The notes beneath the pieces are model-generated. The model saw only the letters and a program-made list of their open reading frames with translations, was not told the DNA's origin and did no database searches. Positions 3,355-63,968 of a stretch of DNA of 64,000 bases are shown in pieces. How positions within the stretch are numbered: the first letter of the stretch is position 1; each line of letters starts with the position of its first letter. Made by a program: the position numbers and the translations under genes. Origin of the DNA: Pseudomonadota bacterium (GTDB lineage Bacteria > Pseudomonadota > Alphaproteobacteria > Rickettsiales > RGZB01); NCBI GenBank assembly GCA_010031735.1, contig RGZB01000001.1, positions 86,411 to 150,410 on the forward strand. Reading direction: 5' to 3'.

Positions 3355-3374
3355 ATTACTACCTCAGAAACACC

Positions 3375-3408
3375 AAACCCGACCGCCCCTCATGGGACGG
3401 CCGGGTTT
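3375..3408. terminator. bidirectional hairpin terminator shared by pyrB (+) and cassette C1 (-)
   Basis: AAACCCGaCCGcCCC-tcat-GGGaCGGcCGGGTTT. On the minus-sense RNA it is followed by GGUGUUUCUGAGG, the conserved cassette tail. Confidence 0.6.
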
Positions 3409-3448
3409 GAAATGTACCAATTACCCCTACACTAACTAACAGGTCTGC

Positions 3449-3703
3449 TCAGCCCATGTTGGCTTGGGTGAGGGTTTCGACGATGAGCCTCATCATGATG
3501 GCGGGAATCGGGGTCTCGCACTGCACAGCCCCCTGCGTCCCGTCGAACTTGCTGACCGGGAACTGCATCTTCTCGCCCTTCTCCATCACCATCGAGCCGA
3601 CCTTGATGTCTTCGAGCGCTTCGATCTCGACTGACCCGGAAACGAGTTGGATCTTGAACGGGAGTGCGACTTCGACATGGATCACGAACGTTTGCGTAGC
3701 CAC
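3449..3703 (-). CDS. hypothetical small protein, GC3-rich cassette C1 (family A, paralog of 11787-12161)
   Basis: 84 aa, GTG start preceded by GAGGG. Nearly all codons end in G/C. N-terminus ..FVIHVEVALPFKIQLVSGSV.. resembles ..IYTIEVELPFDLTVSRSTV.. of C6. Confidence 0.65.
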   Translation of the reverse strand: MATQTFVIHVEVALPFKIQLVSGSVEIEALEDIKVGSMVMEKGEKMQFPVSKFDGTQGAVQCETPIPAIMMRLIVETLTQANMG

Positions 3704-3741
3704 GACAGTACCCTCGGAGTTTGGTCGTGATGCGCGAAGAC

Positions 3742-3764
3742 GAATCCCGCAGGATTGTTCCTTG
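3742..3764 (-). promoter_or_regulatory. conserved leader RNA hairpin (CAAGGAAC-AAUCC-UGCG-GGAUU) in C1 5' leader
   Basis: Same motif in the C6 leader (12210-12234). Two stem positions differ by compensatory changes (A-U/A-U versus G-C/U-A). Confidence 0.45.
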
Positions 3765-3869
3765 TCTTGGCATCACACTTTCGGATGAGTGAATATCCTT
3801 TTCACTCTACGTGCATAGGCATGCATGGTTGGACGCCATGGATACTTTACGCACGAGTTAGTTGTATCC

Positions 3870-3901
3870 ACTATAGCAGAAACAGGTGAATAACTGGTTA
3901 A
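3870..3901 (-). promoter_or_regulatory. putative promoter of C1: TTAACC-N20-TATAGT
   Basis: Gene-sense TTAACCagttattcacctgtttctgcTATAGT, directly abutting the terminator tail of C2. Confidence 0.45.
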
Positions 3902-3914
3902 TACCCCCCTAAAA

Positions 3915-3958
3915 ACACGAAAACCTTCCACCCCAGCTAGGGTGGAAGGTTCGCGTGT
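3915..3958 (-). terminator. intrinsic terminator of cassette C2 (conserved module)
   Basis: Gene-sense ACACGCGAACCTTCCACCC-tagctg-GGGTGGAAGGTTTTCGTGT + TTTTAGGGG. 19-bp stem with 1 mismatch. The stem is nearly identical to 10068-10115. Confidence 0.75.
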
Positions 3959-3988
3959 GTCCCGGTTTACGCTCCGGAACTAATCTCC

Positions 3989-4336
3989 TCAGTCGTCGAA
4001 CGGATCCGCGATGTCGAGGCCCGCACGTGCGGCCTCGTCCTCGAGCAGCATGTCGCCGTAGGCCTCGCCGTAGGGCTTCGGCTCGACCAGCTTGATCTCC
4101 ATGAACGGCACCATCTTCCAGTCCTGAGACGCGTTCTGCCGCATCATGATGTCGTAGGTCCGGTTGTACTCGATCTGGACGGGCTTGCCCTTGGACAGCT
4201 CGAACGGCGTCGCCTCGAGGTCTTCCAGCAGTGAGATGCGTAATGCGACTTGCACTTCGCCCTGCTTGTTTTCTGCCGTGGGGAACTCGCCGACGCTTGC
4301 AACGAACCTAATCCCGAACAGGGTGAACGAAAACAT
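3989..4336 (-). CDS. hypothetical small protein, GC3-rich cassette C2
   Basis: 115 aa, ATG with GGAG upstream, strongly G/C-ending codons, acidic C-terminus ..LDIADPFDD. Confidence 0.7.
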   Translation of the reverse strand: MFSFTLFGIRFVASVGEFPTAENKQGEVQVALRISLLEDLEATPFELSKGKPVQIEYNRTYDIMMRQNASQDWKMVPFMEIKLVEPKPYGEAYGDMLLEDEAARAGLDIADPFDD

Positions 4337-4504
4337 GACCCGAACTCCGAATGTGGGGATTGCAGACGAATCACACCATCCTTGGGGTGATTCGCACTGC
4401 GGGGTGGGGTACTAAGGAACATCCTTGCACCTTACTTGCTTTCCATGTGTGGGGTGATTTTTAAAACCGCACCGCACATTTCCAGACAAGAACCAACTGT
4501 CCCC

Positions 4505-4536
4505 ATGGTATCAAACCCATGTTAACAAAATCTTAA
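4505..4536 (-). promoter_or_regulatory. putative promoter of C2 with perfect TTAA-N7-TTAAC box
   Basis: Gene-sense TTAAgattttgTTAAC (4536->4521). The first half-site TTAAGA lies N20 from TACCAT. Confidence 0.45.
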
Positions 4537-4573
4537 ATTTGTAATTTTTGATGTAGATTTTTAGTTTATACGA

Positions 4574-4608
4574 GAGCCCTCCCCCACCCGACGGGTGGAG
4601 GAAGGCTC
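4574..4608 (-). terminator. intrinsic terminator of cassette C3
   Basis: Gene-sense GAGCCTTCCTCCACCC-gtcg-GGTGGGGGAGGGCTC followed by TCGTATAAAC. Confidence 0.65.
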
Positions 4609-4651
4609 GCGCTTCTGGCTTTACGTTAGGTGCCAGGAACCTCTATCACAC

Positions 4652-4945
4652 TCAGCTCTGGCTGGCGCGCTCCTGCGCGGCGAACTCCGCCGCGTGCTCG
4701 CTGACGCTCTCGACCTCTTCGTCGGCCGGGAGCGGGAAGGCCGGGGCCCACTCTTCCGGGTCCCCGAGCCAGCTGCCACCGGAGTGGCCGTTGTGCTCGT
4801 GGTCCCAGCGGGCCTTCTGGTTGGTGAACTCCGCCTCGAACTTCGGCAGGTCGGCGATCGGGGCCTCGATCTTGTACGGGGCCTTGGCCAACAGCACCCA
4901 CACGTTGACCTTCTCGCCCTTGACCACGATGTGTTGGATCTTCAT
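4652..4945 (-). CDS. hypothetical small protein, GC3-rich cassette C3
   Basis: 97 aa. By hand count 93 of 97 sense codons end in G/C (Lys AAG, Glu GAG). Two other long ORFs over the same DNA are R/G/P-rich shadow frames. Confidence 0.75.
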   Translation of the reverse strand: MKIQHIVVKGEKVNVWVLLAKAPYKIEAPIADLPKFEAEFTNQKARWDHEHNGHSGGSWLGDPEEWAPAFPLPADEEVESVSEHAAEFAAQERASQS

Positions 4946-5136
4946 CGGAACCTGAGCCTCGAACTGGTGTGATGCGCAGCATGACTCCCCCGTTTTACAA
5001 ACACGGTTGGAGTCTTACTGCACGCGGTAGTCACGAAAGCGCCGTTGCTCCCGTGACGTGTACTTTGCCCGACGATCCTCTGCTGCACCGGTGTTGGTTG
5101 TGGTGCTGGCGGAGAATACTGATGTCGGACTAGATC

Positions 5137-5168
5137 AAACTATCTCTAGGATAGCAAATAATGGTTAA
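5137..5168 (-). promoter_or_regulatory. putative promoter of C3: TTAACCAT..-N20-TAGTTT
   Basis: Gene-sense TTAACCATtatttgctatcctagagaTAGTTT. Exact TTAACCAT 8-mer. Confidence 0.45.
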
Positions 5169-5196
5169 TTTTTTATTAGCGTTGCACACTTTTTAT

Positions 5197-5228
5197 TTAA
5201 CCATTTATTAAGCATTTAGACATATAAT
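5197..5228 (+). promoter_or_regulatory. putative promoter of the 515-aa P-loop gene: TTAACCAT..-N20-TATAAT
   Basis: TTAACCatttattaagcatttagacaTATAAT, then a 25-nt leader with TAAGGA before the ATG at 5254. Divergent from the C3 promoter. Confidence 0.55.
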
Positions 5229-5253
5229 AGCGTATTGATAAGTAAGGATTTTC

Positions 5254-6801
5254 ATGCGCCCGATTTACGAGCCATCAACCGACCTACTCTATTCCGGCCA
5301 TTTTGAGCGGGCGGATCTGGTCGCGCTCGGGAATGCGCTTGGGGTCAGCAACATCAAAGTCATCACCCAGGCAACGCTTGAACCGGACCGGGTATTCTAT
5401 CACGCGTGCATCAATCGGGTGCTCATCAACGTCAAACTGAAGCATCTGGATGAAAGCGAACGTTCGGTTGAAATCGCAGATCTTGCAGAGCGCGTTTACC
5501 GTGACAGGCAGCCGCTTTTTTTCTCTGAATTGTTGAAAAGAGATACCGAGTTAAGAACAAAATTGAATGGCATCGATGTGTTCTGTAATACGCTTGATCA
5601 GATGGCGCCCGACCCATGGGATAAAGCTGCGTTCGACCAACTGTGTGGTGCAGAAAAGGTGCCACAGCGCTGGCAACAGAAAGCCATCGAAACCTACCGC
5701 ACCATCCGTGAACGCATCGCGACAGGAGAATATACTCCGCGGGAGGAAGAAGATGCCCTCTCGCTTACCATCTATTGGGCGCAGCGAAACGTTGAATATA
5801 AACACTACAGGACCATCGCGCGTGAAGCGGTGGAATCTTATCTGGAGAAAACCATCGGTAAAGAAGAGCGTCTTGCCGTACAGCCCGCCAAGGGTCGCAT
5901 CACCACCATGGTCATCGGCGGGTATGGCAGCGGCAAAAGCACCATCTCCAACTGGCTACTCGCACAGATGGGAGATGAAGAGCGTCAGAATACAGGCATC
6001 CATGATGCGGATACCGCGAAGATTGCACTTCTGAGAAAAGCCATCCTGGATAGAATATTGCCTCCTGATCATCCGACCACGGGTTTCGCCGTGCAGAACG
6101 AATCCTCCAATATCAATTACGAAATCACGAGAGAGAGGGCATATCTTGCCGAACATGCTGGCTTTGTGCCCAGGGTCATTATCAATAGCCCGATCTTAGG
6201 TACAACCGAAATGAATGAGGCCCTTGCAGGTGGTGGCAAATTGGTGGGACACCATCTCTTCATGACTATCCCGGAGGCGGTTGGCGAATCCAAACTCCGC
6301 GCAGCACGCATCGGACGTATGCCAGAGGAAGCGGATATCCACTGGTCTACCGTCGCTTCAGCGAAAAGTATCCTAGGCCTTACGGATAGCACGTATCGTG
6401 GCAAAGAGATCACCCTGCATCTCTACAACCGTGAACAGCAGAAAGCACCTAAGCATTATGGCGTGATCGATGTCGCAAATGCCGTCTTTTACATCCATGA
6501 CCTGAATGCTTTAGCCAGCACTGCAGAGATGACGGATGAATCCATCTCGCGTCCGGAGGCACTTCATCGTTTCCTTAAAAAATTCAATGACGCAGGTTTC
6601 ACTATCGCCCTTGCCAAGGCAGAGGAACTCGACAATCCCGTCGCTGTAATTAAGGCGGATAAGAAACTTGAAATCGCGAACCGTGCTGACTTTGTTGCTT
6701 ACGGCGATTTGCGCGCTGAAGTGACTAAGCTTTCTGCCCATACACAATTCAGTGATATCGTGCTGAACCAACCGAAGCCGACAGGCGCGATAAGGATGTA
6801 A
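5254..6801 (+). CDS. hypothetical P-loop NTPase/kinase (zeta-toxin-like Walker A)
   Basis: 515 aa. Walker A MVIGGYGSGKST near residue 220. No other family assignment possible by eye. Confidence 0.7.
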   Translation: MRPIYEPSTDLLYSGHFERADLVALGNALGVSNIKVITQATLEPDRVFYHACINRVLINVKLKHLDESERSVEIADLAERVYRDRQPLFFSELLKRDTELRTKLNGIDVFCNTLDQMAPDPWDKAAFDQLCGAEKVPQRWQQKAIETYRTIRERIATGEYTPREEEDALSLTIYWAQRNVEYKHYRTIAREAVESYLEKTIGKEERLAVQPAKGRITTMVIGGYGSGKSTISNWLLAQMGDEERQNTGIHDADTAKIALLRKAILDRILPPDHPTTGFAVQNESSNINYEITRERAYLAEHAGFVPRVIINSPILGTTEMNEALAGGGKLVGHHLFMTIPEAVGESKLRAARIGRMPEEADIHWSTVASAKSILGLTDSTYRGKEITLHLYNREQQKAPKHYGVIDVANAVFYIHDLNALASTAEMTDESISRPEALHRFLKKFNDAGFTIALAKAEELDNPVAVIKADKKLEIANRADFVAYGDLRAEVTKLSAHTQFSDIVLNQPKPTGAIRM

Positions 6802-8404: not shown

Positions 8405-9517
8405 CTACTCCCCAGGCGTATCAGGGTTATAACCCTTGCTGATGTCGATTTTGTTTACTGCCGCGATTAGTTTTACCACCTGCGAAAAAAATCCATCCCT
8501 CAGAGCTTCACTAAAGCATATATCATTCCATGCAGCTTCCCGGCTTAGTTTTTGTTCCGTTAACGCACGGGCGAGCTCTGGGTTATTGGGGATATACTCA
8601 TCTTCAAACCATTCAACAAGCTTACGAGGAGTTTTATCTCCATCAACCTCAAGTACTTCGAGAATTCCTGACCTAGACGATGCTTCAAGAAAATCTTTCA
8701 ACGTTACATACTTTTTCATAGACCATAGCAGATCTTCACAAATTGAATCCGGTAAATACAGGCTGCTGCCTTCTTCCTGAATACCTGACATAATAGGCTT
8801 TTCTGCTAAAATTTCTCGTAAAGCCCCTGCTGCTTGCTCATTCTCAGGAAGATCGTCTACCCTAGAACGGAAGTCCCACACCAAAAACAAAAAATCATAA
8901 ACACCTTCTATTACCATTTCGGCTGCTTCCTGTGGATTTTGCGGCTCTTTCTCGGCAGCTGCCTTCTTCTGATCAACGGATACATTACCTTCTTTGTATG
9001 ACTCTATGCCCCTCTCACTTTCAGCACTAAACATGTCAAGTGCGGCAGCGAGCCATTCCCGCTTAAACGGCTTTCTCTCGGCAAGAGCGAGAACAAACTC
9101 CATATTATCCTTATGCCTTACCGTGAATTCATCACCTCGTAAAAGACTAATATATAATTCGTTAAGGCTGTGGATGATGATCGCCTGTTGAACCGTTATA
9201 GCATGAACGCTTAAATCAGTATCTTCTTTAGGGGCAAACGCAGCAACTGCGGCATAGATGCGGTCATAGGTGCCTTTGTTAAAATTATCTTCAAATACTC
9301 CTCTATCAATCTCTTCATCCGGCTCCACAAAAGGAGGGATTTTGAGGATCATAATCAAACTACCAGAGTGTATACTCAATTGCCCCATTATATCATCTTC
9401 GATCTGTTCATCGGTCATTTCAGTTTCTGATTTGAGTGCCTCCACTAAAGGCAATTCAAGCAACGCCGCAAGTTGCGCTTCCTTATTAGCCTTATCTCTC
9501 CAATTCGTTCCGCTCAT
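8405..9517 (-). CDS. hypothetical acidic protein (370 aa), lower-GC ORFan
   Basis: Long ORF 8 nt downstream of 9526-10008 on the same strand. Its stop codon abuts the pyrC stop with zero spacer. Confidence 0.65.
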   Translation of the reverse strand: MSGTNWRDKANKEAQLAALLELPLVEALKSETEMTDEQIEDDIMGQLSIHSGSLIMILKIPPFVEPDEEIDRGVFEDNFNKGTYDRIYAAVAAFAPKEDTDLSVHAITVQQAIIIHSLNELYISLLRGDEFTVRHKDNMEFVLALAERKPFKREWLAAALDMFSAESERGIESYKEGNVSVDQKKAAAEKEPQNPQEAAEMVIEGVYDFLFLVWDFRSRVDDLPENEQAAGALREILAEKPIMSGIQEEGSSLYLPDSICEDLLWSMKKYVTLKDFLEASSRSGILEVLEVDGDKTPRKLVEWFEDEYIPNNPELARALTEQKLSREAAWNDICFSEALRDGFFSQVVKLIAAVNKIDISKGYNPDTPGE

Positions 9518-9525: not shown

Positions 9526-10008
9526 CTATTCCTTACTCTGCGCCACCATCTTCAGGATATATTTTCTAAAATCCGGATCTTCACCGACGAGTAATTTCGG
9601 CAGCGCTTTTCTGAAATCCTCACGCTTCACCCAGAAAATAATGTAGTCTTCCCAGGTGCTCCACAGACGCTTTTGGTGTGGCGGCATCTTCTCTTCATAG
9701 ACAAGGATGTATGCTTGTTCGAATAAGGAAATCAGCAGATCGAAGATGATGAGTTTCCTCTCAATTTGTTCATTCGTCAGCTTTCGCTTCGAACTGTTTT
9801 TTGAAAACAGGCGAAGATCGGAATTCTCAAGAAGGATTTCCTGGAAATCGGAATATTGGTCAGCGAGGCGTTGATACACCTCCTCCTCTTCGTTCTGACG
9901 TTCCTTACGGTAATCGGAAATGAAAATAATGATGGCGAAGGGTAAACCGATCACGGTTACCACATAGCTGAGCAACTCCCACGTCTCTATATCAGTAAAA
10001 TCCATCAT
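9526..10008 (-). CDS. hypothetical membrane-anchored protein (160 aa)
   Basis: N-terminal TM helix LLSYVVTVIGLPFAIIIFI. AT-rich codon usage. The -10-like TAGTAT lies 6 nt from the ATG (leaderless geometry). Confidence 0.65.
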   Translation of the reverse strand: MMDFTDIETWELLSYVVTVIGLPFAIIIFISDYRKERQNEEEEVYQRLADQYSDFQEILLENSDLRLFSKNSSKRKLTNEQIERKLIIFDLLISLFEQAYILVYEEKMPPHQKRLWSTWEDYIIFWVKREDFRKALPKLLVGEDPDFRKYILKMVAQSKE

Positions 10009-10014
10009 GCTCAG

Positions 10015-10046
10015 ATACTAAGTGAAAATGGTGAAGAAAAGGTTAA
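10015..10046 (-). promoter_or_regulatory. putative promoter of 160-aa/370-aa operon: TTAACC-N20-TAGTAT
   Basis: Gene-sense TTAACCttttcttcaccattttcactTAGTATctgagcATG. Aligns with the C1 promoter (shared TTAACC..TTCACC..TTTC). Confidence 0.5.
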
Positions 10047-10067
10047 TGCCCTGCTTTATACCCTAAA

Positions 10068-10115
10068 ACACGAAAACCTTCCACCGCCCCGAAGGGTAGT
10101 GGAAGGTTCGCGTGT
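10068..10115 (-). terminator. intrinsic terminator of cassette C4 (conserved module)
   Basis: Gene-sense ACACGCGAACCTTCCAC-tacccttcggggcg-GTGGAAGGTTTTCGTGT + TTTAGGGTAT. Same stem as 3915-3958 but a different loop. Confidence 0.75.
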
Positions 10116-10144
10116 GCCCTGACTTACGATGCCAGGGCTAGGTA

Positions 10145-10711
10145 CTACGGCTTCGGCAACTCGAAGCCGAACTCGTCGTCCTCATCGGTCGGAGGGGCGG
10201 CGGGCGGCGGCGGCGGCGGCAATTCAAACACCACCTCCTGCTCGCCTGGCCAGTCTTTCAACTCGAACCAGCCCTCGTCGTCCTCCTGCGGCGGCACCGC
10301 CTTTGCCACCTCACCCAACCCGGAAAGCTTACCGAACTCGGTGAGGGCTTTGGAGATGTCCTCGCCCACGGCCGCCAACGCAATGGCAGTTGGCGGCAGC
10401 TCCCAGCAATCGTTGTCATCCACGACGACTGGCCCGGTGACCGGCGGACCGATCACCAAGTGCTCACCCGTGGGCAGCCCGCTCCCGGGGAACACCGAGT
10501 TCAGGATATTCCGGGCGCGGCGCGTAGCGCGCAGGTGACGCACCACCTCCGTCGCCTCGAACTCCTCGCGGGTGAAGGGCGTCAACTTCACGCCGACCGC
10601 CGTGAGGATGGCCTTCGCGGTGGCCCCGTTCATGTCACCGTAGTTTTTCGTGGCGCCGTTCTTGGACGGCTTGGTGAACACGAGCCCGGCGGTCAGGATG
10701 CGCTTCTGCAT
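10145..10711 (-). CDS. hypothetical protein, GC3-rich cassette C4 (family B, paralog of 11059-11487)
   Basis: 188 aa from the ATG at 10711 (GAGGT upstream). The ORF-track start at 10870 runs into the AT-richer leader. KP..K..TKNYG..G motif is shared with C5. Pro/Asp/Glu-rich C-terminus. Confidence 0.65.
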   Translation of the reverse strand: MQKRILTAGLVFTKPSKNGATKNYGDMNGATAKAILTAVGVKLTPFTREEFEATEVVRHLRATRRARNILNSVFPGSGLPTGEHLVIGPPVTGPVVVDDNDCWELPPTAIALAAVGEDISKALTEFGKLSGLGEVAKAVPPQEDDEGWFELKDWPGEQEVVFELPPPPPPAAPPTDEDDEFGFELPKP

Positions 10712-10939
10712 GGGACTAGTACCTCGCCATTTCTCCCATCCCCTGTTTTTAATTGTTAGGGGGACGCGGATAGTGGCACATGTAGGGATTGGTGGAGGAA
10801 ATTTGTGAAACCCTTTCCACTTAGGGTTATGCAAAACTGTAGGCTCGAACCGTAGCAAAACCAAAAACAATGCCCACAGTCAAACACCGAACCAAACTTA
10901 CATAACACCAACTTAACATCCCCAGTATGACTGAACGAT

Positions 10940-10972
10940 ATTACAAAAATATTACCCCTGACCCATGGTTAA
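10940..10972 (-). promoter_or_regulatory. putative promoter of C4: TTAACCAT..-N21-TGTAAT
   Basis: Gene-sense TTAACCATgggtcaggggtaatattttTGTAAT. Exact TTAACCAT 8-mer immediately after the C5 terminator tail. Confidence 0.4.
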
Positions 10973-10988
10973 TAGCGCCTATAAACAC

Positions 10989-11022
10989 GAAACCCCGCCC
11001 CCACTAAAGGGGACAGGGTCTC
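10989..11022 (-). terminator. intrinsic terminator of cassette C5
   Basis: Gene-sense GAGACCCTGTCCCC-tttagt-GGGGGCGGGGTTTC + GTGTTTATAGG (G-U pairs valid only in the minus-sense RNA). Confidence 0.7.
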
Positions 11023-11058
11023 ATGCGCCTGACTCACGCCAGGTCTTTAGGTATCAGG

Positions 11059-11487
11059 TCACTGCGGCGTCTCTACCGGGTAGCCCCCGAAGTTGTCGGT
11101 TTTCGTGACCCCGCCCTTCTCCTTAGGCGGCGCTTCGCCCAGCTCCTTCAGCAGATCGAACGGCTCGTCTTCCGGGGTCAGCTTCACCGCCTCACCCAGC
11201 CCATCGATCTCCGGAACAGCAGGCAGGAACTCCAGCACCGTCGTCCCGCCCTCGTTGCTACCCTGCGGCGCATCGTAGGGCGGCTCCATCGGCCACTCGA
11301 ACACCTCGTCGTTCCAGTCGTGCATGTCGAGCGGCGGGCGCTTGTACGGCCACAGCCCGGCCTTCTTCAGCGCCTGCTGCGCCTTGAACCCGCTCACCGG
11401 CCCGTAGTTCTTCGTCCAGCTCTTGCGCCCCGGCTTGTAGTAGCTGTCCGGGTGCTTCACCGACGTCAACAAAAGAGACGCGCGCAT
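11059..11487 (-). CDS. hypothetical protein, GC3-rich cassette C5 (family B)
   Basis: 142 aa from the ATG at 11487 (MRASLLLTSVKHPDSYYKPGRKSWTKNYGPVSG..). Start chosen by alignment with C4. G/C-ending codons. Confidence 0.65.
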   Translation of the reverse strand: MRASLLLTSVKHPDSYYKPGRKSWTKNYGPVSGFKAQQALKKAGLWPYKRPPLDMHDWNDEVFEWPMEPPYDAPQGSNEGGTTVLEFLPAVPEIDGLGEAVKLTPEDEPFDLLKELGEAPPKEKGGVTKTDNFGGYPVETPQ

Positions 11488-11668
11488 AACCCAATACCTC
11501 ACCACAACTTCCACCATCCTAATTTTTAGGCGGGAGCAGTGGCACACAAGCTGGTGAAGTAATTATTATGACCCCTCTTCACCAAATGGGTCCTTCGACA
11601 ACCGCGATTACGTTAGTACGTAGCCACGGGTTATATTCCATCAAAAGACAGCCAACGAAAGAGCCACC

Positions 11669-11700
11669 AGTATATCGCTGGAATATTGCAGTTTGGTTAC
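11669..11700 (-). promoter_or_regulatory. putative promoter of C5: GTAACC-N20-TATACT
   Basis: Gene-sense GTAACCaaactgcaatattccagcgaTATACT. Confidence 0.4.
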
Positions 11701-11728
11701 GTCTTAAAAAGCTAATAAACAGCTATAA

Positions 11729-11770
11729 AACACAAGACCCCCGCCGCAGATGCGACGAGGGTCTTGTGTT
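11729..11770 (-). terminator. intrinsic terminator of cassette C6
   Basis: Gene-sense AACACAAGACCCTCG-tcgcatctgc-GGCGGGGGTCTTGTGTT + TTATAGC. Confidence 0.7.
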
Positions 11771-11786
11771 GTTAATTGTGCTTACT

Positions 11787-12161
11787 CTACTCGCCAGAGC
11801 CCCCTTGCGCCGGGGGGTCGCCCTTGTAGGCGTCGTCGTGAACGTCCGTCGGCCACGGCGGCATACCGTTCATCCCGCCGCACAGATTCGTCAACACTTT
11901 CGGCATCACGCTCTTCGCCGCCGCCTTCACGATCTTGGCCGCGATGATCGTGCTGCCCGCGCCGTCCCCGACCACTTCGATCGAGATCTTCCCGTCCAGC
12001 ACCTGCGCGAGGCTCACTTCCGCCGACTGACCCTTTTTGAGCGGGTGGCACTTGCCGCCGCCCAGCACGTTCAGAGGCACGTGCGCACAGATGGTGACGG
12101 TGCTGCGCGACACCGTGAGATCGAACGGCAGTTCGACCTCAATCGTGTAAATGGTTCCCAT
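11787..12161 (-). CDS. hypothetical small protein, GC3-rich cassette C6 (family A)
   Basis: 124 aa. Strong SD AGGAGGG 6 nt before the ATG. G/C-ending codons. N-terminus similar to C1. Confidence 0.75.
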   Translation of the reverse strand: MGTIYTIEVELPFDLTVSRSTVTICAHVPLNVLGGGKCHPLKKGQSAEVSLAQVLDGKISIEVVGDGAGSTIIAAKIVKAAAKSVMPKVLTNLCGGMNGMPPWPTDVHDDAYKGDPPAQGGSGE

Positions 12162-12209
12162 ATTCGCTCCCTCCTAAAGAAGCGTAGTGGGTTCCTGATG
12201 ACGACAGCC

Positions 12210-12234
12210 GGTTCCCGCAGGAACGTTCCTTGGC
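12210..12234 (-). promoter_or_regulatory. conserved leader RNA hairpin (CAAGGAAC-GUUCC-UGCG-GGAAC) in C6 5' leader
   Basis: Counterpart of 3742-3764, with compensatory stem changes. Confidence 0.45.
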
Positions 12235-12454
12235 TTTGTCATCGTAATTCGTGGGGTAAGGAATCCATTACCTTACCTGCTGCCTAACACCGATGAGTTA
12301 CATCGGGGTCCAAAACAGCAAGACAAACCATAGGCAGGATAAAGGTAAATTATGACGGAGATATGACGCACCACTGTGAAAAGCCGAAAGTATGGCATAA
12401 AATAGCCATACTTGGCAGTCCATCTTATTGCCATTACCGCTATATTTCAGTTAC

Positions 12455-12487
12455 TAAGTATTACACCATCGTTAACGGGTCGTTAAC
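12455..12487 (-). promoter_or_regulatory. putative promoter of C6 with perfect TTAA-N7-TTAAC box
   Basis: GTTAACgggtcGTTAAC reads as TTAA-N7-TTAAC on both strands (12472-12487). The gene-sense upstream TTAACG lies N20 from TACTTA. Confidence 0.45.
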
Positions 12488-12497
12488 TCATCTGTAA

Positions 12498-12517
12498 CAT
12501 GTTCCACGTGGAACATG
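12498..12517. repeat. perfect 20-bp palindrome CATGTTCCACGTGGAACATG
   Basis: Read directly. Lies between the C7 terminator and the C6 TTAAC box. Confidence 0.9.
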
Positions 12518-12537: not shown

Positions 12538-12569
12538 TGCCGTAATAGACATTCTATTCGCCCCAAAAA

Positions 12570-12609
12570 GCAAAAGGGAGAGAGGTTTGCAGTCCCTCTC
12601 TCCCTTTGC
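12570..12609 (-). terminator. intrinsic terminator of cassette C7
   Basis: Gene-sense GCAAAGGGAGAGAGG-gactgcaaa-CCTCTCTCCCTTTTGC + TTTTTGGGG. Confidence 0.7.
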
Positions 12610-12654
12610 CGCCCCGTATAATAGATAATAAAATGGGGCTTCATTCTTCCATGA

Positions 12655-12954
12655 TCAGCCGACGGTGTCCCCGTCGTTCGGCCACTGGTAGTCGGCGTTC
12701 CCGCTCACCCAGTCGATCACCGCCGACGCGCCCACGCCCATGTCCTCGTTCTCGAACTCCTTGTCCTCGGCCATCGCCCGCGCGGCCTCGTGCCCGATGG
12801 CCGCGTACTTGGCCTGCAGGGCGAGGTCGGCACCGTCCACGGCCTTGTCGTCCGGGTCGTCCTTGATCTTGGTCACGGTCTTGGTGGCCGGCTGGACCTC
12901 GAAGAAATCGTCCGCGCCGCCGTCGTCGTCGTTCCGCCGATTCCGAGCGCTCAT
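12655..12954 (-). CDS. hypothetical acidic small protein, GC3-rich cassette C7
   Basis: 99 aa from the ATG at 12954 (GGAG 9 nt upstream). The ORF-track TTG at 12990 is also possible. G/C-ending codons. Confidence 0.6.
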   Translation of the reverse strand: MSARNRRNDDDGGADDFFEVQPATKTVTKIKDDPDDKAVDGADLALQAKYAAIGHEAARAMAEDKEFENEDMGVGASAVIDWVSGNADYQWPNDGDTVG

Positions 12955-13138
12955 GGCTGCTTTCTCCGCTTTCGGTAATCCCTTACGCAACTTGGGATGT
13001 CAACCGAAGCACGTGTGTGGTGAGGGTCTAGAACTCGATCTTCGAACTCTGCTATCTACCCTTCTCACCTTAGGGTCATGTATCAGTCCTCGGTTGCGAC
13101 ACGAGAGACTGGTTATATGCACCAAGAAATACCCCTTT

Positions 13139-13170
13139 AATATGCCCGAATACTGTTACAAATATGTTAA
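13139..13170 (-). promoter_or_regulatory. putative promoter of C7: TTAACA-N20-CATATT
   Basis: Gene-sense TTAAcatatttGTAACagtattcgggCATATT (TTAA-N7-gTAAC, one mismatch to the full box). Confidence 0.4.
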
Positions 13171-17190: not shown

Positions 17191-17949
17191 ATGAGCAAAA
17201 AGACGATCATCCCCCTGGATACCGAAAAGAAGGACTCCCTGTTCGAGAATAGCGAGCAGAGCCTTCGTGATTTCAACTTCAACGCCAAAGTCGCTGAAGT
17301 ATTTGACGACATGGTAAGCCGTTCGGTTCCTTTCTACACCGAGATGCAACGTATGACCTGCGAACTTGCGAAAGACTTCGCACGTCCGAATACCAACCTG
17401 TACGACATCGGTTGCTCAACCGCGACCACGATGCTCGCGCTTGACCCCTATCTCGATGAAGCTGTTAATTTCATCGGCATCGATAACTCACAGGACATGC
17501 TGAACAAAGCAGCGAAGAAAGTGCAGGAATCTGGCAGCAAACGTTCGATGGATTTTGTCTGTGCCGATCTGCACAAAGGCGTGCATTTCGAGAACGCGAG
17601 TGTCATCACCATGCTGCTGACGTTGCAGTTCGTCCGTCCGCTTTACCGCGAGCGCATCATGAAGAACATCTATCATGGCCTGAACGACCAGGGCGCACTC
17701 ATCCTCATCGAGAAACTGACGAGCGAGAGCACGATGTTCAATCGTCTGTTCATCGATCATTACTACGACTTCAAGCGCCGTAACGGGTATTCCGAAAACG
17801 AGATCACGCATAAACGTGAGGCATTGGAAAACGTGCTTATCCCTTATCGCGTCGAAGAAAACTATGCGCTGCTGCAGGATGCCGGCTTCAAACACGTAGA
17901 GGTGTTCTTCCGCTGGTATAATTTCTGCGGCATCATCGCGATGAAATAA
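17191..17949 (+). CDS. cmoA: carboxy-S-adenosyl-L-methionine synthase
   Basis: FNAKVAEVFDDMVSRSVPFY and SAM-methyltransferase fold motifs (YDIGCSTA), 252 aa. Confidence 0.85.
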   Translation: MSKKTIIPLDTEKKDSLFENSEQSLRDFNFNAKVAEVFDDMVSRSVPFYTEMQRMTCELAKDFARPNTNLYDIGCSTATTMLALDPYLDEAVNFIGIDNSQDMLNKAAKKVQESGSKRSMDFVCADLHKGVHFENASVITMLLTLQFVRPLYRERIMKNIYHGLNDQGALILIEKLTSESTMFNRLFIDHYYDFKRRNGYSENEITHKREALENVLIPYRVEENYALLQDAGFKHVEVFFRWYNFCGIIAMK

Positions 17950-17966
17950 TAATCGAAAAGGCATTT

Positions 17967-22319: not shown

Positions 22320-22331
22320 CCTTCAAATGCC

Positions 22332-22367
22332 GACGGGGGTAGTGGTATAACCCACTTACCCCCCGTC
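22332..22367. terminator. hairpin shared by 21561-22319 (+) and cassette C8 (-)
   Basis: GACGGGGGTAGTGG-tataac-CCACTTACCCCCCGTC (two bulges). No clear U-tract on either side. Confidence 0.45.
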
Positions 22368-22394
22368 TCTACTCTCTGTCATCTCACCGAATTA

Positions 22395-22520
22395 TTACTT
22401 CTTCTTGTGGCCCGCGAACTGGTTGGCCGGGATCTTGTGCTGCCGCCGCGCGCGCTTGAGGGCCTTGCTGTTGCCCTTGGCCTTGGCGGACTCCGTCTTG
22501 CCGTGCTGGATCTTGCGCAT
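22395..22520 (-). CDS. hypothetical 41-aa highly basic peptide, GC3-rich cassette C8
   Basis: MRKIQHGKTESAKAKGNSKALKRARRQHKIPANQFAGHKKK. Every Lys is AAG and most codons end in G/C. Below the ORF-track cutoff. The opposite-strand ORF 22407-22601 looks like a shadow frame. Confidence 0.45.
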   Translation of the reverse strand: MRKIQHGKTESAKAKGNSKALKRARRQHKIPANQFAGHKKK

Positions 22521-22672
22521 GGTCGTAGTCCCTCGGTGTGTGTGGCGGGAACCTTTCGTTGTTTGTCCCGCCTAAGAACTGGATACTACCTTCGACGCTA
22601 GAACTCGTTCTACCTATCGATGAACTGGGTGTCCGTGCAGCAACTCACTTCTTCCCAGGTTGTTTTCCAATC

Positions 22673-22708
22673 CAACAAATACAGTTATGCCAACAAATAC
22701 AGTTATGA
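22673..22708. repeat. perfect tandem duplication, 2 x 18 bp (CCAACAAATACAGTTATG)
   Basis: Read directly. Lies in the leader/promoter region upstream of C8. Confidence 0.95.
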
Positions 22709-22898
22709 ATGTACCGAATATTTGTTACAGAAAGGGGTTTTATACCCCCTTTCGTCAAACCCTTTGAACTACTGTAAATTAATACTTGCCAAGGTACCAA
22801 TGGGATGCTACAAACTCCCCCAATTGCTAAGCGTTTTAGATAGGTGGGCCAAACAGCCCGCCTTTTTTGTTGCCTAAATCGACCCTTTTACGAGTTAT

Positions 22899-50495: not shown

Positions 50496-50519
50496 CTTAT
50501 TTTCTGAGCTTAAAAAGCC

Positions 50520-50555
50520 GAAGCCCGACGCCCCCTCGTGGGTGCGCCGGGCTTC
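50520..50555 (-). terminator. intrinsic terminator of cassette C9
   Basis: Gene-sense GAAGCCCGgCG..CGtCGGGCTTC + GGCTTTTTAAG, 8 nt after the stop codon. Confidence 0.7.
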
Positions 50556-50563
50556 AAGACTTT

Positions 50564-50872
50564 TTACTCGAGGTCAGAGCCCTCGAGCTCCGGAGTCGTC
50601 CGGAATTTGATCTTCTTGCCGCCGATCACGATCTTGAACTCGTCGCGCGTTACGGTGACTACTTGCGTCACCTCATCAGCCCACGCGACCGACTCCATCT
50701 CGTTGCCATCGACGAGCATCACGACCTCTTTGTTCTTGGTCGTGATGAAAAACTTGGTTTTCGGGTTCTCCCAGAACTGGGATGGGCGGATATGAACTTT
50801 CTTACCCTGTTTGCCCCGCCCCTTGACATCATCACCTTCGATGATGATGCCGTCGGGAAGTTCGATTCGCAT
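50564..50872 (-). CDS. hypothetical small protein, cassette C9
   Basis: 102 aa. Strong SD AAGGAGGG. Codons mostly G/C-ending but less extreme than C1-C7. Confidence 0.7.
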   Translation of the reverse strand: MRIELPDGIIIEGDDVKGRGKQGKKVHIRPSQFWENPKTKFFITTKNKEVVMLVDGNEMESVAWADEVTQVVTVTRDEFKIVIGGKKIKFRTTPELEGSDLE

Positions 50873-51168
50873 CGCCCTTCCCTCCTTTCATACTGTCAGG
50901 CCTTAGTCTCGTGGCCTATAACTCTCCGTGAGTTATAAGCGGGCGGTGGCTGATTTTGCCGGATGTTTGCCCTTTTCACGAAAAGTACCTAACATACTGA
51001 ATATACCGTCTAATTATGAACCTCGTGTGACACGATATAATAGCCTGATAAATATAGGATATTTACAGCAGATGTCCTAGGCTCCACTAAACTTCCAGCA
51101 CACAAGCCTTCCTTTTGACAGAGGCATTTTTTTGGTGCATAACAACCCAACTTTCAAAGGAAAAAGAC

Positions 51169-57822: not shown

Positions 57823-57835
57823 TATATATCAATAT
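57819..57835. repeat. 17-nt block TCATTATATATCAATAT, identical copy at 62699-62715
   Basis: Read directly. Both copies lie at the left edge of a plus-strand cassette unit and are followed by TTAAC-containing sequence. The first copy contains the addB start codon. Confidence 0.85.
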
Positions 57836-57989
57836 GTTAATATGGTTAACTTGTAACAATAGTTTCACGTAAACCTAGCATGGATTTGCTAATATAGAAC
57901 TGGTTTTTCTCTGTTGGTGTTAGTGTTCTGTTCCACACCTTGTCTCACTCGTATGGTATTCGAGTGAAGACGCATCGGAGTACGGTCGA

Positions 57990-58292
57990 ATGGTTACGAT
58001 CCACATGTTCACAGCAGAGCTCGCAGCTCTCGAACACGGGCAAACGGTTACGAAGGGCAGCGTCACGATCAGCCTCGAAAACGTGCCGAACACCACGACG
58101 ATCAAGCTCAACGAGCAGCAGTTCGCAGATTTGACGCTGAGCACAAACGTCGAGGTGGCAGGGTACAAGCTGATCGCGCCGGACAAGAAGAAGGCTCCGC
58201 ACGACCCGATCATCGGTAAGATGCTCCCAGCGCAGGGCGAACCCATGGATAACCCGCCGATCGATGGCGCGGGTAACCCGGGCTGGCTGTGA
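57990..58292 (+). CDS. hypothetical small protein, GC3-rich cassette C10
   Basis: 100 aa, GGAG upstream, G/C-ending codons. The two antisense ORFs over the same DNA look like shadow frames. Confidence 0.65.
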   Translation: MVTIHMFTAELAALEHGQTVTKGSVTISLENVPNTTTIKLNEQQFADLTLSTNVEVAGYKLIAPDKKKAPHDPIIGKMLPAQGEPMDNPPIDGAGNPGWL

Positions 58293-58349
58293 CAAAGATT
58301 AGCCCAAGAAAAGAAGACTTAACCGGATTGGGCCCCGGTTAAGCACATG

Positions 58350-58380
58350 AAACCCCACGACCGTAAGGTTCGCGGGGTTT
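58350..58380 (+). terminator. intrinsic terminator of cassette C10 (conserved tail)
   Basis: AAACCCCaCGAcC-gtaa-GgTTCGcGGGGTTT + TGTGTTTTTAGGGC. Preceded by a second hairpin CTTAACCGG..CCGGTTAAG (58318-58343). Confidence 0.7.
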
Positions 58381-58395
58381 TGTGTTTTTAGGGCA

Positions 58396-62115: not shown

Positions 62116-62166
62116 TCGGCAGCGTCCGTAAGGTCCGTTTAGCTATTCATTACATCCATTCCCTTG

Positions 62167-62688
62167 ATGAGATATCTCGCAATTTTGCTGGTATTCATGC
62201 TGTGCGCTTCGTGCGCCACGATGGAACGCGCCTCCGCACCGCCCGAGATGAAGGGCAAGGTCGAGCGCGCCGATAAGATCGTCGTGTTCAAAAAGCGCCG
62301 CACGATGTATCTCATGCAGGACGGTCAATCCATCCGCAAATACCCGATCTCCGTGGGTCGCAACCCCGTAGGACAGAAGATCAAGAAAGGTGATCAGCGC
62401 ACGCCGGAAGGCCTGTATCGCATCATCAACAAAAAGCCGCACAGTATCTATTACCGCTCGCTGCAGATCTCCTACCCAAACGCGACCGACATCGCCAATG
62501 CGCGTAAACGTAAAGTGAATCCGGGTGGCGATATCGTCATCCACGGCTTTAAACGCGGGCGCGATGCGTTCGATAAAGAGATCGATTATTTCGACTACAC
62601 CGACGGCTGCATCCGCGTCAGCAACGCCGATCTCGACGAAATCTGGTCGCTTGTGCCCATCGGCACCCCCATCCAGATCAATCCATAA
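62167..62688 (+). CDS. L,D-transpeptidase (YkuD domain) protein
   Basis: Signal peptide. HG..GCIRVSNADLDEIW catalytic Cys motif. The ORF-track TTG start is 3 nt upstream. Confidence 0.85.
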   Translation: MRYLAILLVFMLCASCATMERASAPPEMKGKVERADKIVVFKKRRTMYLMQDGQSIRKYPISVGRNPVGQKIKKGDQRTPEGLYRIINKKPHSIYYRSLQISYPNATDIANARKRKVNPGGDIVIHGFKRGRDAFDKEIDYFDYTDGCIRVSNADLDEIWSLVPIGTPIQINP

Positions 62689-62698
62689 TTAATAATTA

Positions 62699-62715
62699 TC
62701 ATTATATATCAATAT
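62699..62715. repeat. second copy of 17-nt block TCATTATATATCAATAT
   Basis: Identical to 57819-57835. Confidence 0.85.
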
Positions 62716-62725
62716 ATTATATCGT

Positions 62726-62769
62726 TTAACATATATTTAACATTATTTTATTGTTATTTATGGCATAGT
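62726..62769 (+). promoter_or_regulatory. putative promoter of C11 with perfect TTAA-N7-TTAAC box
   Basis: TTAAcatatatTTAAC (62726-62741), then TTAACA-N21-CATAGT. The 26-nt block CGTTTAACATATATTTAACATTATTT recurs at 63453-63478 (25/26 identical). Confidence 0.5.
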
Positions 62770-62978
62770 GTCTTTGCATTTTACCACACGTGGTTTCAGA
62801 ACAGGGTCCGTTCTCTTTTTATTCTTCCCCCAACCAAAACAACACACGGGAAGATACGCTGCAGCAAAGCCATACCAGGACAACGATCTCCATGAGAGAT
62901 TTACCGGTATACGTAGGCTAGCTGAAGTAGAGAGAATCGATCCTGTTGCTGAAACCACTTCGGAAAGCGAGGTGGAAA

Positions 62979-63374
62979 ATGCAGACCATGATCCTGTTGG
63001 GCGGCAAGTTGACGATCCAGGCCTGCGAGTTGGAGAACGCCTTCGGCCTCATCGTCAACGGTGAGACGCGGAGCGTCAGCAAGTACCCGCACCCGCACGT
63101 GCCGACGCCGAAGGAGATCGACGCGGCGGTGCAGACGGCGATCGACTTCCTGATCAGCCAGGGCTACGACATCACGATGCCGCTGCCGGTCGAGGAGATC
63201 ACGCCGCTCGACGAGGTGCTGGACGCCATCCCGGTGGACAGCGACGTGATGCTGGTCCCCGACGACGACGTGATCGACCTGGGCAAGGAGCTGCTCGAGG
63301 GCGGCACGACCGAGGAGAAGCCGGACGACAACGAGATGTTCGGGGGCTACAAGCACCCCTGGGACAACGAGTAA
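62979..63374 (+). CDS. hypothetical acidic protein, GC3-rich cassette C11
   Basis: 131 aa from the ATG at 62979 (GAGGTGG SD). The ORF-track TTG at 62946 lies in the lower-GC leader. G/C-ending codons. Confidence 0.7.
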   Translation: MQTMILLGGKLTIQACELENAFGLIVNGETRSVSKYPHPHVPTPKEIDAAVQTAIDFLISQGYDITMPLPVEEITPLDEVLDAIPVDSDVMLVPDDDVIDLGKELLEGGTTEEKPDDNEMFGGYKHPWDNE

Positions 63375-63395
63375 CAACTGACTGAGTGACCTACA

Positions 63396-63427
63396 GAGGG
63401 CTTCGTGGATTAAACCACGAGGCCCTC
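63396..63427 (+). terminator. intrinsic terminator of cassette C11
   Basis: GAGGGCtTCGTGG-attaaa-CCACGAgGCCCTC + GCCTTTTCTAGGGTAT. The pre-stem ACCTACAG is shared with 63933-63940. Confidence 0.7.
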
Positions 63428-63455
63428 GCCTTTTCTAGGGTATCTCCACCTACGT

Positions 63456-63498
63456 TTCACATATATTTAACATTATTTCCCTGTGATTTATATATAAT
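63456..63498 (+). promoter_or_regulatory. putative promoter of C12: TTcA-N7-TTAAC, TTAACA-N20-TATAAT
   Basis: TTAACAttatttccctgtgatttataTATAAT. One mismatch to the full box. Confidence 0.5.
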
Positions 63499-63631
63499 GA
63501 AGGCTCGTCCATACCGTTAGGTTACAGAGCCCAGAACATCCGGTTCTTCCAGAGAATCCCAAAAGCCAGTCAGAAACTGTGCTCCGGGTGCTATGGATCT
63601 GTGCCTACCAACACGAAGGGTTGGTGTCGAG

Positions 63632-63886
63632 ATGGTGATGGTGTACGGCTGGAGCTGGTGGATGTACCTGCTGGTGTTCCCGTTCTTCTACAAGCAGTAC
63701 TGGGTGAAGATGGCGGGCGGGAAGTGGTGTACGGTGGAGAAGTTCGTTCGCGCCTACCCGCACGAGCAGCCCTGCATCTGCAAGAAGATCGGCAACCTGT
63801 GGGTGATCACCGACGTGTTCTACCTGAACAAGCAGCACCAGGTGGTGAAGTTCCACCACGAGCCGCCGCTGATGATCGACGACTGA
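63632..63886 (+). CDS. hypothetical Trp/aromatic-rich small membrane protein, GC3-rich cassette C12
   Basis: 84 aa from the ATG at 63632 (MVMVYGWSWWMYLLVFPFFYKQYW..). The 13 codons upstream of it (ORF-track start 63593) are not GC3-rich, so the exact start is uncertain. Confidence 0.55.
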   Translation: MVMVYGWSWWMYLLVFPFFYKQYWVKMAGGKWCTVEKFVRAYPHEQPCICKKIGNLWVITDVFYLNKQHQVVKFHHEPPLMIDD

Positions 63887-63939
63887 CAGATTCCCTACTC
63901 TGAACACGACAGAGTCTAAAAAAATGTGGAGAACCTACA

Positions 63940-63968
63940 GGGGGCGTCGTGCGAAAGCACGGGCCCCC
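63940..63968 (+). terminator. intrinsic terminator of cassette C12
   Basis: GGGGGCgtCGTGC-gaaa-GCACGgGCCCCC + GACATTTTTTAGGGTGTG. Confidence 0.7.

Follow-up and report, generated by a model that had tools for sequence, protein, structure and literature searches.

A family of predicted small-gene cassettes with G/C-shifted silent sites among alphaproteobacterial housekeeping genes

The DNA analysed here, which we refer to as the window, is a stretch of 64,000 nucleotides (GC ~0.52) from contig RGZB01000001.1 (161.5 kb), which belongs to the NCBI metagenome-assembled genome (MAG) of an uncultured freshwater alphaproteobacterium, labelled 'Proteobacteria bacterium' (locus tags EB060_xxxxx). Between its housekeeping genes lie 12 short open reading frames (ORFs), followed by a thirteenth just past its end, each of which appears to carry its own control elements, and the silent third codon positions (GC3) of these ORFs are shifted strongly to G and C while the amino-acid composition of their products is native. 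The reading that we prefer, to which we assign a probability of roughly 0.45, is that these at least 13 units constitute a lineage-specific, locally expanded family of cassettes that is defined by its non-coding frame and whose silent sites have been recoded in place. As far as we have searched, this unexplained and purely synonymous recoding pattern is undescribed.

All 12 ORFs picked out by a first-pass annotation, which a model had made from the letters of the window, were present with the boundaries and strands it gave, nine on the minus strand (c1 to c9) and three on the plus strand (c10 to c12), and we could confirm their distribution over six intergenic sites, on either strand and in head-to-tail arrays of two to four; site A holds c1 to c3, site B c4 to c7 and site C c8. 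The proposed order of promoter, leader, ORF and hairpin was also borne out, given that a Shine-Dalgarno-like GGAG or GAGG is found 6-13 nt upstream of the start codon and a GC-rich hairpin of 12-19 bp with a T-tract downstream of the stop codon in 12/12 units, together with predicted promoter blocks and leaders with predicted lengths of ~125-320 nt. Ten of the 12 are called in the NCBI annotation, as hypothetical proteins EB060_00435..00750. As predicted units, the at least 13 cassettes look like autonomous small-protein genes. They are listed below in window coordinates, together with one orphan neighbour.

3365..3912, minus strand: c1, ORF 3449-3703 (84 aa, GTG start, GC3 0.82); CtrA-type boxes 3886-3912, leader ~3704-3870, terminator hairpin 3373-3410.
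3913..4537, minus strand: c2, ORF 3989-4336 (115 aa, GC3 0.85); exact TTAA-N7-TTAAC 4521-4536; a small 3' hairpin, then the terminator 3921-3952.
4565..5212, minus strand: c3, ORF 4652-4945 (97 aa, GC3 0.95); CtrA-type boxes 5161-5211 including TTAACCAT, structured leader (z -4.9), terminator ~4570-4612.
10058..10972, minus strand: c4, ORF 10145-10711 (188 aa, GC3 0.87); TTAACCAT 10965-10972, terminator 10065-10128.
10975..11720, minus strand: c5, ORF 11059-11487 (142 aa, GC3 0.89); promoter box degenerate, leader homologous to that of c4, terminator ~10982-11025.
11722..12498, minus strand: c6, ORF 11787-12161 (124 aa, GC3 0.86); exact TTAA-N7-TTAAC 12471-12486, terminator 11729-11770.
12565..13170, minus strand: c7, ORF 12655-12954 (99 aa, GC3 0.95); CtrA-type box 13155-13170, terminator 12573-12607.
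22325..22775, minus strand: c8, between AIM24 and rimP, ORF 22395-22520 (41 aa, basic, GC3 0.98); promoter of a different type, lacking a CtrA-type box; two perfect tandem copies of a 19-nt direct repeat, gcataactgtatttgttgg, in the leader at ~22670-22710; terminator ~22332-22366.
50506..51110, minus strand: c9, ORF 50564-50872 (102 aa, GC3 0.75); no CtrA-type box found, structured leader (z -3.0), terminator of the shared type 50506-50555.
57830..58395, plus strand: c10, ORF 57990-58292 (100 aa, GC3 0.79); TTAA-N5-TTAAC ~57837-57850; hairpin 58317-58344, then a terminator of the shared type 58345-58385.
62720..63440, plus strand: c11, ORF 62979-63374 (131 aa, GC3 0.98); exact TTAA-N7-TTAAC 62726-62741, strongly structured leader (z -6.6), terminator 63396-63427.
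63450..63985, plus strand: c12, ORF 63632-63886 (84 aa, GC1 0.48, GC2 0.29, GC3 0.96); promoter box 63456-63471, terminator ~63940-63968, related to that of c11.
Past window position 64000, after c12: c13, the thirteenth cassette, positions 520-1018 of contig L085; partial ORF, GC3 0.886.
9526..10057, minus strand: ORF 9526-10008, an orphan neighbour with an ordinary GC3 of 0.57, not a GC3 cassette.

The compositional anomaly of the cassette ORFs proved to be confined to the third codon position. GC3 ranged from 0.75 to 0.98 (mean 0.889) in the 12 cassettes and from 0.39 to 0.73 (mean 0.603) in the 54 other ORFs, with zero overlap between the two sets (Mann-Whitney p=7.5e-8), as the first-pass annotation had anticipated from a hand count of G/C-ending codons in the ORF of c3, which we reproduced. 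In contrast, GC1 did not differ significantly (p=0.08) and GC2 was 0.385 in cassettes and other ORFs alike (p=0.86). When the codons were pooled, GC1, GC2 and GC3 were 0.613, 0.389 and 0.891 in the cassettes and 0.588, 0.394 and 0.623 in the core genes, whereas genes of GC-rich alphaproteobacteria with a GC3 of 0.8-1.0 have a GC1 of 0.667 and a GC2 of 0.46-0.47. The amino acids follow the same division: the GARP and FYMINK fractions of the cassette products (0.268 and 0.252) are close to those of the core genes (0.263 and 0.260) and unlike those of high-GC3 genes (~0.34 and 0.19-0.20), and the products contain 7.7% Lys and 2.6% Arg, as against 3.4% and 7.5% in genes of high-GC alphaproteobacteria. 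Lys outnumbers Arg in 12/12 cassettes; among high-GC3 ORFs taken from GC-rich genomes this is the case for just 10-22% (24 of 245 long ones, 28 of 127 short ones). The proposal that the ORF bodies are compositionally foreign was thus not upheld, the excess being synonymous only and the amino-acid make-up native.

A three-phase sliding GC scan of the window returned strong islands essentially at the cassettes only, the sole other one being the Arg/Asp/Gly-rich C-terminal tail of pnp (31681-31899), and in ~350 kb of other mid-GC alphaproteobacterial loci such islands were few and short; one that we inspected, in locus L002, is a low-complexity linker. The bias starts and stops with the ORF, given that the leaders have a GC of 0.47 compared with 0.42 in other intergenic DNA, and within the ORFs there is a 5' ramp, with a GC3 of 0.815 in codons 2-10 and 0.93 further in. 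The shift to G/C is general, affecting all amino acids and not a few codons. The cassettes use AAG, GAG and CGT at 0.89, 0.82 and 0.06, compared with 0.31, 0.37 and 0.39 in the core translation genes, in agreement with the earlier statement that core genes prefer AAA, GAA and CGT; the native translation genes favour AAA (0.69), GAA (0.63), CGT and GGT. GGG and CGG are used at 0.29 and 0.35 in the cassettes and at 0.01 and 0.00 in the native translation genes, and therefore the cassette code is not the native codon optimum. The choice among codons ending in G or C is like that of high-GC bacteria, with CCG above CCC and with GGG and CGG in use, and the native preference persists in the cassettes, in stronger form, for Phe, Tyr, Asn, His and Ile.

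One consequence of this usage is the removal of A/T runs. Runs of at least three A/T occur at 19.5 per kb in the cassette ORFs and at 97 per kb in the core ORFs, while the cassette proteins recoded with native codon usage would contain 98.4 +/- 5.4 per kb; c3 and c12 have none, and c8 and c11 one each. The RNWUU motif is similarly reduced, to 2.8 per kb from 10.1. With this roughly five-fold reduction in A/T runs, the ORFs lose most of their RNase E-type sites and AT-rich DNA motifs.

The NNS pattern of coding eliminates most stop codons, and because of this long ORFs appear antisense to the cassettes, up to 239 aa in length (11568-12287 and 11023-11529 on the plus strand, 62901-63377 on the minus strand). 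We rejected these as genes, as their translations are Arg-rich shadow sequence, and note that they could be mis-called as genes.

While the ORFs are for the most part unrelated, the elements around them recur. Seven of the 3' regions align to a common terminator, which reads CACACG(C/A)GA(A/C)CC, a stem-loop, and GG(T/G)TT(T/C)CGTGTTTTT(A)GGG. A covariance model built from these seven regions (R1) matches the terminator at eight cassettes, including that of c9, which was outside the training set; neither the core genes nor ~180 kb of sequence from relatives gave a match. A second type of terminator is found in c11 and c12, the two being related to each other through compensatory stem changes. 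The terminator arms of c2 and c4 are 100% and 87% identical beside unrelated ORFs, c11 and c12 have promoter and terminator in common but neither leader nor ORF, and two connectors are homologous, one joining the c2 terminator with the c1 promoter and the other the c4 terminator with the promoter of ORF 9526-10008. This last connector shows the modules recombining with unrelated ORFs. Scans of viral contigs with leader and terminator strings gave one chance 17-mer without a hairpin and nothing else. In c2, c3 and c4 a small additional hairpin follows the stop codon, ahead of the terminator (3962-3980, 4613-4640 and 10117-10140), and has a conserved loop motif, CGUAA(A/G), in place of which c5 has CGUGAG; the hairpin may be a protein- or RNase-binding element.

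The promoter regions are marked by boxes of the CtrA type. TTAA-N7-TTAAC and TTAACCAT are the full and ungapped CtrA motifs, which lie near -35 at activated promoters (PMC6180460). Allowing up to one mismatch, we counted 29 copies of the former in the window where 8.8 would be expected; for the latter the count was 6 and the expectation 1.4. A sense-strand CtrA-type site is present in 8/12 cassettes, compared with 0.69 +/- 0.79 expected and a maximum of 4 in 2000 shuffles in which each 230-nt promoter region was dinucleotide-shuffled on its own. The boxes lie ~200-320 nt upstream of the start codon, at a presumed position near -35, and the promoters of c11 and c12 are shared, with nearly identical boxes. 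Together with the R1 terminator at eight cassettes and the homologous connectors, these sites bear out the earlier claim of shared control modules.

The leaders are structured (mean z -2.05; c3 -4.9, c9 -3.0, c11 -6.6), and neither they nor the terminators matched any Rfam family at gathering or permissive E-value thresholds. No shared leader motif and no CsrA-like GGA sites were found, and no k-mer stands out outside the Shine-Dalgarno region. Homology among leaders does exist in particular units. The c1 and c6 leaders are homologous in their 3' halves and have a long hairpin in common, the inner stem of which, AAUCC/GGAUU in c1 and GUUCC/GGAAC in c6, differs by two compensatory pairs, and the c11 and c13 leaders are homologous and include the ACCACACGTGGT palindrome at the 5' end of both. 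Leader blocks are 70-76% identical among units with barely similar proteins (Smith-Waterman z 1.7-3.5), and unconserved leader stretches stay AT-rich. Two pairs had been described as paralogous including their leaders; for c4 and c5 this holds for leader and protein both, while for c1 and c6 it holds for the leader, the proteins being barely similar.

The genes that flank the cassettes (glnE, ahpC, pyrB, pyrC', tolC, AIM24, rimP, an addB-like gene, uvrA and ssb) allowed comparison with relatives. In a set of 5.8 billion proteins, PyrC' has its nearest homologues at 77, 76, 75 and 74% identity, and a further one on a Joint Genome Institute (JGI) contig is 70% identical. In 5/5 relative lineages pyrB, pyrC' and tolC are contiguous, with gaps of 18 and 62 nt in the lineage of contig L093, and AIM24 and rimP are adjacent in two (L093 and L094), 101 nt apart in L093. 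The empty orthologous sites that the first-pass annotation had suggested looking for therefore exist, A and B being empty in five relative lineages and C in two, which shows either gain in this lineage or loss elsewhere. Three relatives read at 74-76% identity have a GC of 0.51-0.52, with a core GC3 of ~0.6 in L093, and the 70% relative has a GC of 36%. Synteny at the uvrA locus (80 species) was uninformative beyond ssb. Mobility is not shown by these data, which cover only absence from relatives at protein divergences of at least 23%. The same cassette junctions recur, 99.6-100% identical, in several metagenome assemblies that bear different names, and therefore the cassettes are not assembly chimeras. 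Short contigs of the same population (L082-L088) end in or beside cassettes (window ~3348-4037 and 63228-63545), as expected if repeated promoter and terminator modules confuse assemblers, and MAGs of this lineage may contain more cassettes than their assemblies show.

The first-pass annotation had recognised nothing similar to the ORFs outside its two paralogous pairs, and our searches agree. A search with c4 against a word-indexed set of 5.8 billion proteins and a full HMMER pass with c11 against 1.84 billion representatives each returned the self match only, ten of the cassette proteins are singleton clusters, bar one near-identical variant, and Pfam, PHROGs, NCBIfam and PADLOC gave no cassette-protein match above noise. 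With all 12 proteins concatenated, tblastn found no match in phage and plasmid collections. There is weak but real similarity among some of the products (Smith-Waterman z 3.4-4.6), and the c13 protein is a remote homologue of that of c11 (z 3.4-4.1). Ten of the 12 products are net acidic, and the products are mostly Pro-rich, many with a tail rich in Asp, Glu, Pro and Gly that holds an aromatic residue. AlphaFold2 models reached a predicted local distance difference test (pLDDT) score of 46 for c11 and of 54 for c6, the latter from a three-sequence alignment. In the c6 model, the better of the two, the N-terminal domain would be all-beta and the tail disordered, and the two modelled members together suggest, at low confidence, a small beta or beta/alpha N-terminal domain followed by such a tail. 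Foldseek returned only generic immunoglobulin-like (Ig-like) sandwiches and no match at E <= 0.001, so we rejected these matches as a basis for function, no inference being possible from them. An effector-like or partner-binding role for the products would be a guess.

Given that the excess is restricted to GC3, that the amino acids are native, that the bias is bounded by the ORF and kept despite divergence, and that non-optimal codons are used, we take the pattern to be an ORF-limited push of silent sites in general toward G/C. Units with related leaders have diverged in their proteins and still have a GC3 of at least 0.82, and therefore the force would be an ongoing one and not a fading relic. 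On the reading that we prefer, the frame of the family would consist of an AT-rich promoter of the CtrA type, a long leader, a Shine-Dalgarno-led NNS ORF of 41-188 codons and an intrinsic terminator of a shared type. The family would have grown inside the lineage by duplication and by recombination at the composite terminator-promoter connectors, in a manner like that of the PeSL motifs described below, and its ORFs would have diverged very fast or been swapped. The G/C bias would be caused by a pressure limited to ORFs and acting on synonymous sites in this genome, and would not be inherited from a GC-rich donor. Recoding of silent sites may remove endonuclease sites, U-tracts, -10-like and TTAA motifs and AT-rich binding sites, such that the body of the message would be hardened or insulated and control left to the CtrA-type promoter and the leader. 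The recoding data fit a gating by tRNAs too. We can imagine, with more doubt, that the frame is a PeSL-like chassis that is duplicated and recombined around the genome and acts as a nursery in which small proteins evolve fast; selection on synonymous sites would actively keep the NNS pattern, and the messages, a distinct class spanning the regulon and free of A/U runs, would either resist nucleases, terminators and silencers or be tRNA-gated.

Several points weigh against this reading. The promoters, the leader lengths and expression are predictions, and any purpose of the G/C bias is conjectural. The cassette ORFs have no extra RNA structure beyond that given by composition (mean z -0.66), the leaders, rich in A/U runs (150 per kb), weaken a simple story of nuclease avoidance, and occlusion of the Shine-Dalgarno sequence by the leaders did not differ significantly from that at core genes (p=0.10). 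Four of the 12 units (c5, c8, c9 and c10) are without a good CtrA-type site, and ctrA is not among the genes of the 64-kb window. The nearest relatives differ by at least 23% in PyrC', and among the same-population contigs, which are 99.6-100% identical, no presence/absence polymorphism was seen. Moreover, function alone can give a small protein an unusual composition, and the cassettes could in truth stem from a GC3-rich mobile element that is native to the lineage and laid out in the same way.

The first-pass annotation had compared the cassettes with phage morons, units of promoter, ORF and terminator with deviant composition that lie between prophage genes. What stands of the comparison is the autonomous look and the insertion between core genes; a phage context and a foreign composition were not found. 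It would nevertheless be conceivable that ORFs from GC-rich phages, plasmids or bacteria were placed behind native promoters and leaders, with GC3 as an un-ameliorated signature of the donor, and the deviant composition, the predicted unit of promoter and terminator around each ORF, and the placement between genes that are adjacent in relatives are indeed likenesses to morons. The spread of GC3 from 0.75 to 0.98, as though ages differed, would agree with such transfer, as would the choice of G/C-ending codons in the manner of high-GC bacteria, and identical modules beside unrelated ORFs would fit ORF capture. However, GC1, GC2, GARP, FYMINK and the Lys/Arg balance are native-like and unlike those of GC-rich genomes, Lys exceeding Arg in 12/12 cassettes, and c12 combines its high GC3 with a GC1 of 0.48 and a GC2 of 0.29. 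A donor signature would also not be expected to end at the start and stop codons and leave the leaders at 0.47, nor would divergent units whose homologous leaders are of native composition all be GC3-high. The phage and plasmid collections and PHROGs gave no matches, the c4 and c11 searches returned only themselves, and phage or mobility genes are absent from the window. In addition, unlike morons, the cassettes are flanked by housekeeping genes and not by a prophage, occur in large number at six sites with shared modules, and have an anomaly that is purely synonymous. We therefore consider this origin unlikely.

Three other explanations appear less probable still. Codons shunned by growth-phase genes (GGG, CGG, AAG and GAG) might gate expression, translation requiring tRNAs or tRNA modifications of a CtrA-controlled state, by analogy with TTA/bldA control in Streptomyces and with codon-biased stress regulons. 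The cassettes would resemble such a regulon as a functionally linked class using codons that growth genes avoid, the contrast with the translation genes in these four codons is large, the bias is limited to ORFs and to codon position 3, and the shared CtrA-type promoter suggests one co-regulated class. Yet the shift takes in the whole third position and every amino acid instead of a single gate codon or a small number of them, the native preference is followed in amplified form for Phe, Tyr, Asn, His and Ile, and the window contains no tRNA genes and no rare tRNA could be pinpointed, which makes gating rather improbable. GC-biased gene conversion would instead act on the cassettes as recombination hot spots, made so by the repeated connectors, with biased repair pushing free sites to G/C. 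Conversion tracts should ignore start and stop codons, though, and the unconserved leader stretches are AT-rich, with 150 A/T runs per kb; the ORFs are too divergent for mutual recombination, and ORF 9526-10008, with the same connector, has an ordinary GC3. Thus, while near-identical repeated modules do flank the ORFs, non-optimal G/C codons are used roughly as neutral GC pressure predicts and the leaders are slightly GC-richer than other intergenic DNA (0.47 versus 0.42), we regard conversion as very unlikely. Lastly, the units might be no genes at all, but by-products of GC-rich periodic sequence, non-coding RNA genes, or a chimera of assembly or binning; the lack of homologues, the poor structure predictions (pLDDT 46 and 54) and the stop-poor nature of NNS sequence, with long shadow ORFs on both strands, could be cited for this. 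The extreme three-base periodicity with a GC2 equal to that of real genes, the correctly placed Shine-Dalgarno sequence and start in 12/12 units, the 5' GC3 ramp, the weak but real similarity between some products, the recurrence of the same junctions in several differently named assemblies and the calling of 10 units by the NCBI annotation leave it scarcely credible.

In known systems, the closest mechanistic analogue of the cassettes would be the PeSL motifs, composite early-promoter/stem-loop terminators around small orphan ORFs in the hyperplastic regions of T4-type phages, which mediate ORF shuffling by homologous recombination (PMC2839356, PMC4122927). In both cases short connectors of terminator and promoter are homologous beside unrelated small orphan ORFs, and the ORFs lie in variable patches among blocks of conserved core genes. 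The cassettes differ in that they lie on a bacterial housekeeping chromosome without phage genes nearby and not in a T4-type phage, that they have promoters of the CtrA type and a long, diverse leader of its own for each ORF, that neither recombination intermediates nor strain-pair indels have been observed for them, and that their ORFs are GC3-saturated. We know of no description of GC3 saturation in genes flanked by PeSL motifs.

Integron cassettes are promoterless; an attC recombination site follows every ORF, and one array is headed by intI/attI. The present units resemble them in forming co-oriented arrays in which small ORFs, for the most part orphans, each precede an imperfect inverted repeat, but the units here have their own promoters and leaders, their hairpins are T-tract terminators and not attC, no intI/attI is present in the window, and the arrays are scattered over six sites on both strands. 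We excluded integron cassettes on the basis of the own promoters, the terminator hairpins and the lack of an integrase. Islands acquired horizontally are recognised by tRNA-adjacent insertion, an integrase and flanking direct repeats, and here there are no tRNA genes and no integrase in the window, while the repeats are internal modules and not borders. Pfam scans of the 64 kb found no integrase, transposase or phage genes, as the first-pass annotation had also seen. Upstream TTAA-N7-TTAA(C) and TTAACCAT boxes are a likeness to CtrA-activated promoters. Gene transfer agents are CtrA-linked and have a GC above the genome mean, with the excess in GC1 and GC2 (cheaper amino acids) and not in GC3 (PMC7360931). 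The cassettes, with their excess in GC3, show the reverse of this pattern.

Bacterial orphan genes are usually AT-richer than their genome, which has been explained by import from phages. A whole set of orphans with the opposite and purely synonymous bias separates odd composition from foreign origin, is a caution for calls of horizontal gene transfer in MAGs that are based on composition, and suggests that silent sites are under strong selection or some other force limited to ORFs. Should this be confirmed, the cassettes would be a natural test system for the role of silent sites in mRNA decay, Rho-dependent and intrinsic termination, nucleoid silencing and tRNA gating; they would also link a cell-cycle regulator motif to a class of codon usage and extend modular shuffling mediated by promoters and terminators from T4-type phages to a bacterial chromosome. 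Were the chassis idea true, nature would have its own equivalent of synthetic expression cassettes that are insulated and recoded, and the units would form a gene class of a new kind at the codon level.

The window otherwise contains alphaproteobacterial housekeeping genes, namely glnE, ahpC, pyrB, pyrC', tolC, folKP, tadA, mlaAC, metF, rimP-nusA-infB-rbfA-truB-rpsO-pnp, argD/F/C, rplM-rpsI, rpoH, an addB-like gene, uvrA and ssb; no tRNA genes and no Rfam families were found in it. The polynucleotide phosphorylase gene pnp (29717-31899) is represented by two overlapping ORFs, 29717-30964 and 30931-31899, and the frameshift reflects either a pseudogene or an assembly error. GANTC, the methylation site of CcrM, is depleted throughout the window (154 observed, ~249 expected from base composition), with no enrichment in the cassettes.

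Three orphan ORFs without a Pfam match, 5254-6801, 8405-9517 and 9526-10008 (GC3 0.56, 0.39 and 0.57, respectively), occupy insertion sites A and B alongside the cassettes and are likewise missing from the relatives, and CtrA-type boxes lie upstream of the first and the last of them. The interval between tadA and mlaC, which are directly adjacent in relatives L093, L096 and L099, holds two methyltransferase genes (17191-18704), of which one is PEMT-like (phospholipid N-methyltransferase). Finally, the neighbouring orphan genes 46541-47575 (344 aa) and 47585-48502 (305 aa), which have no Pfam match, are paralogues of each other, with CtrA-type boxes nearby at 47712 and 48578.

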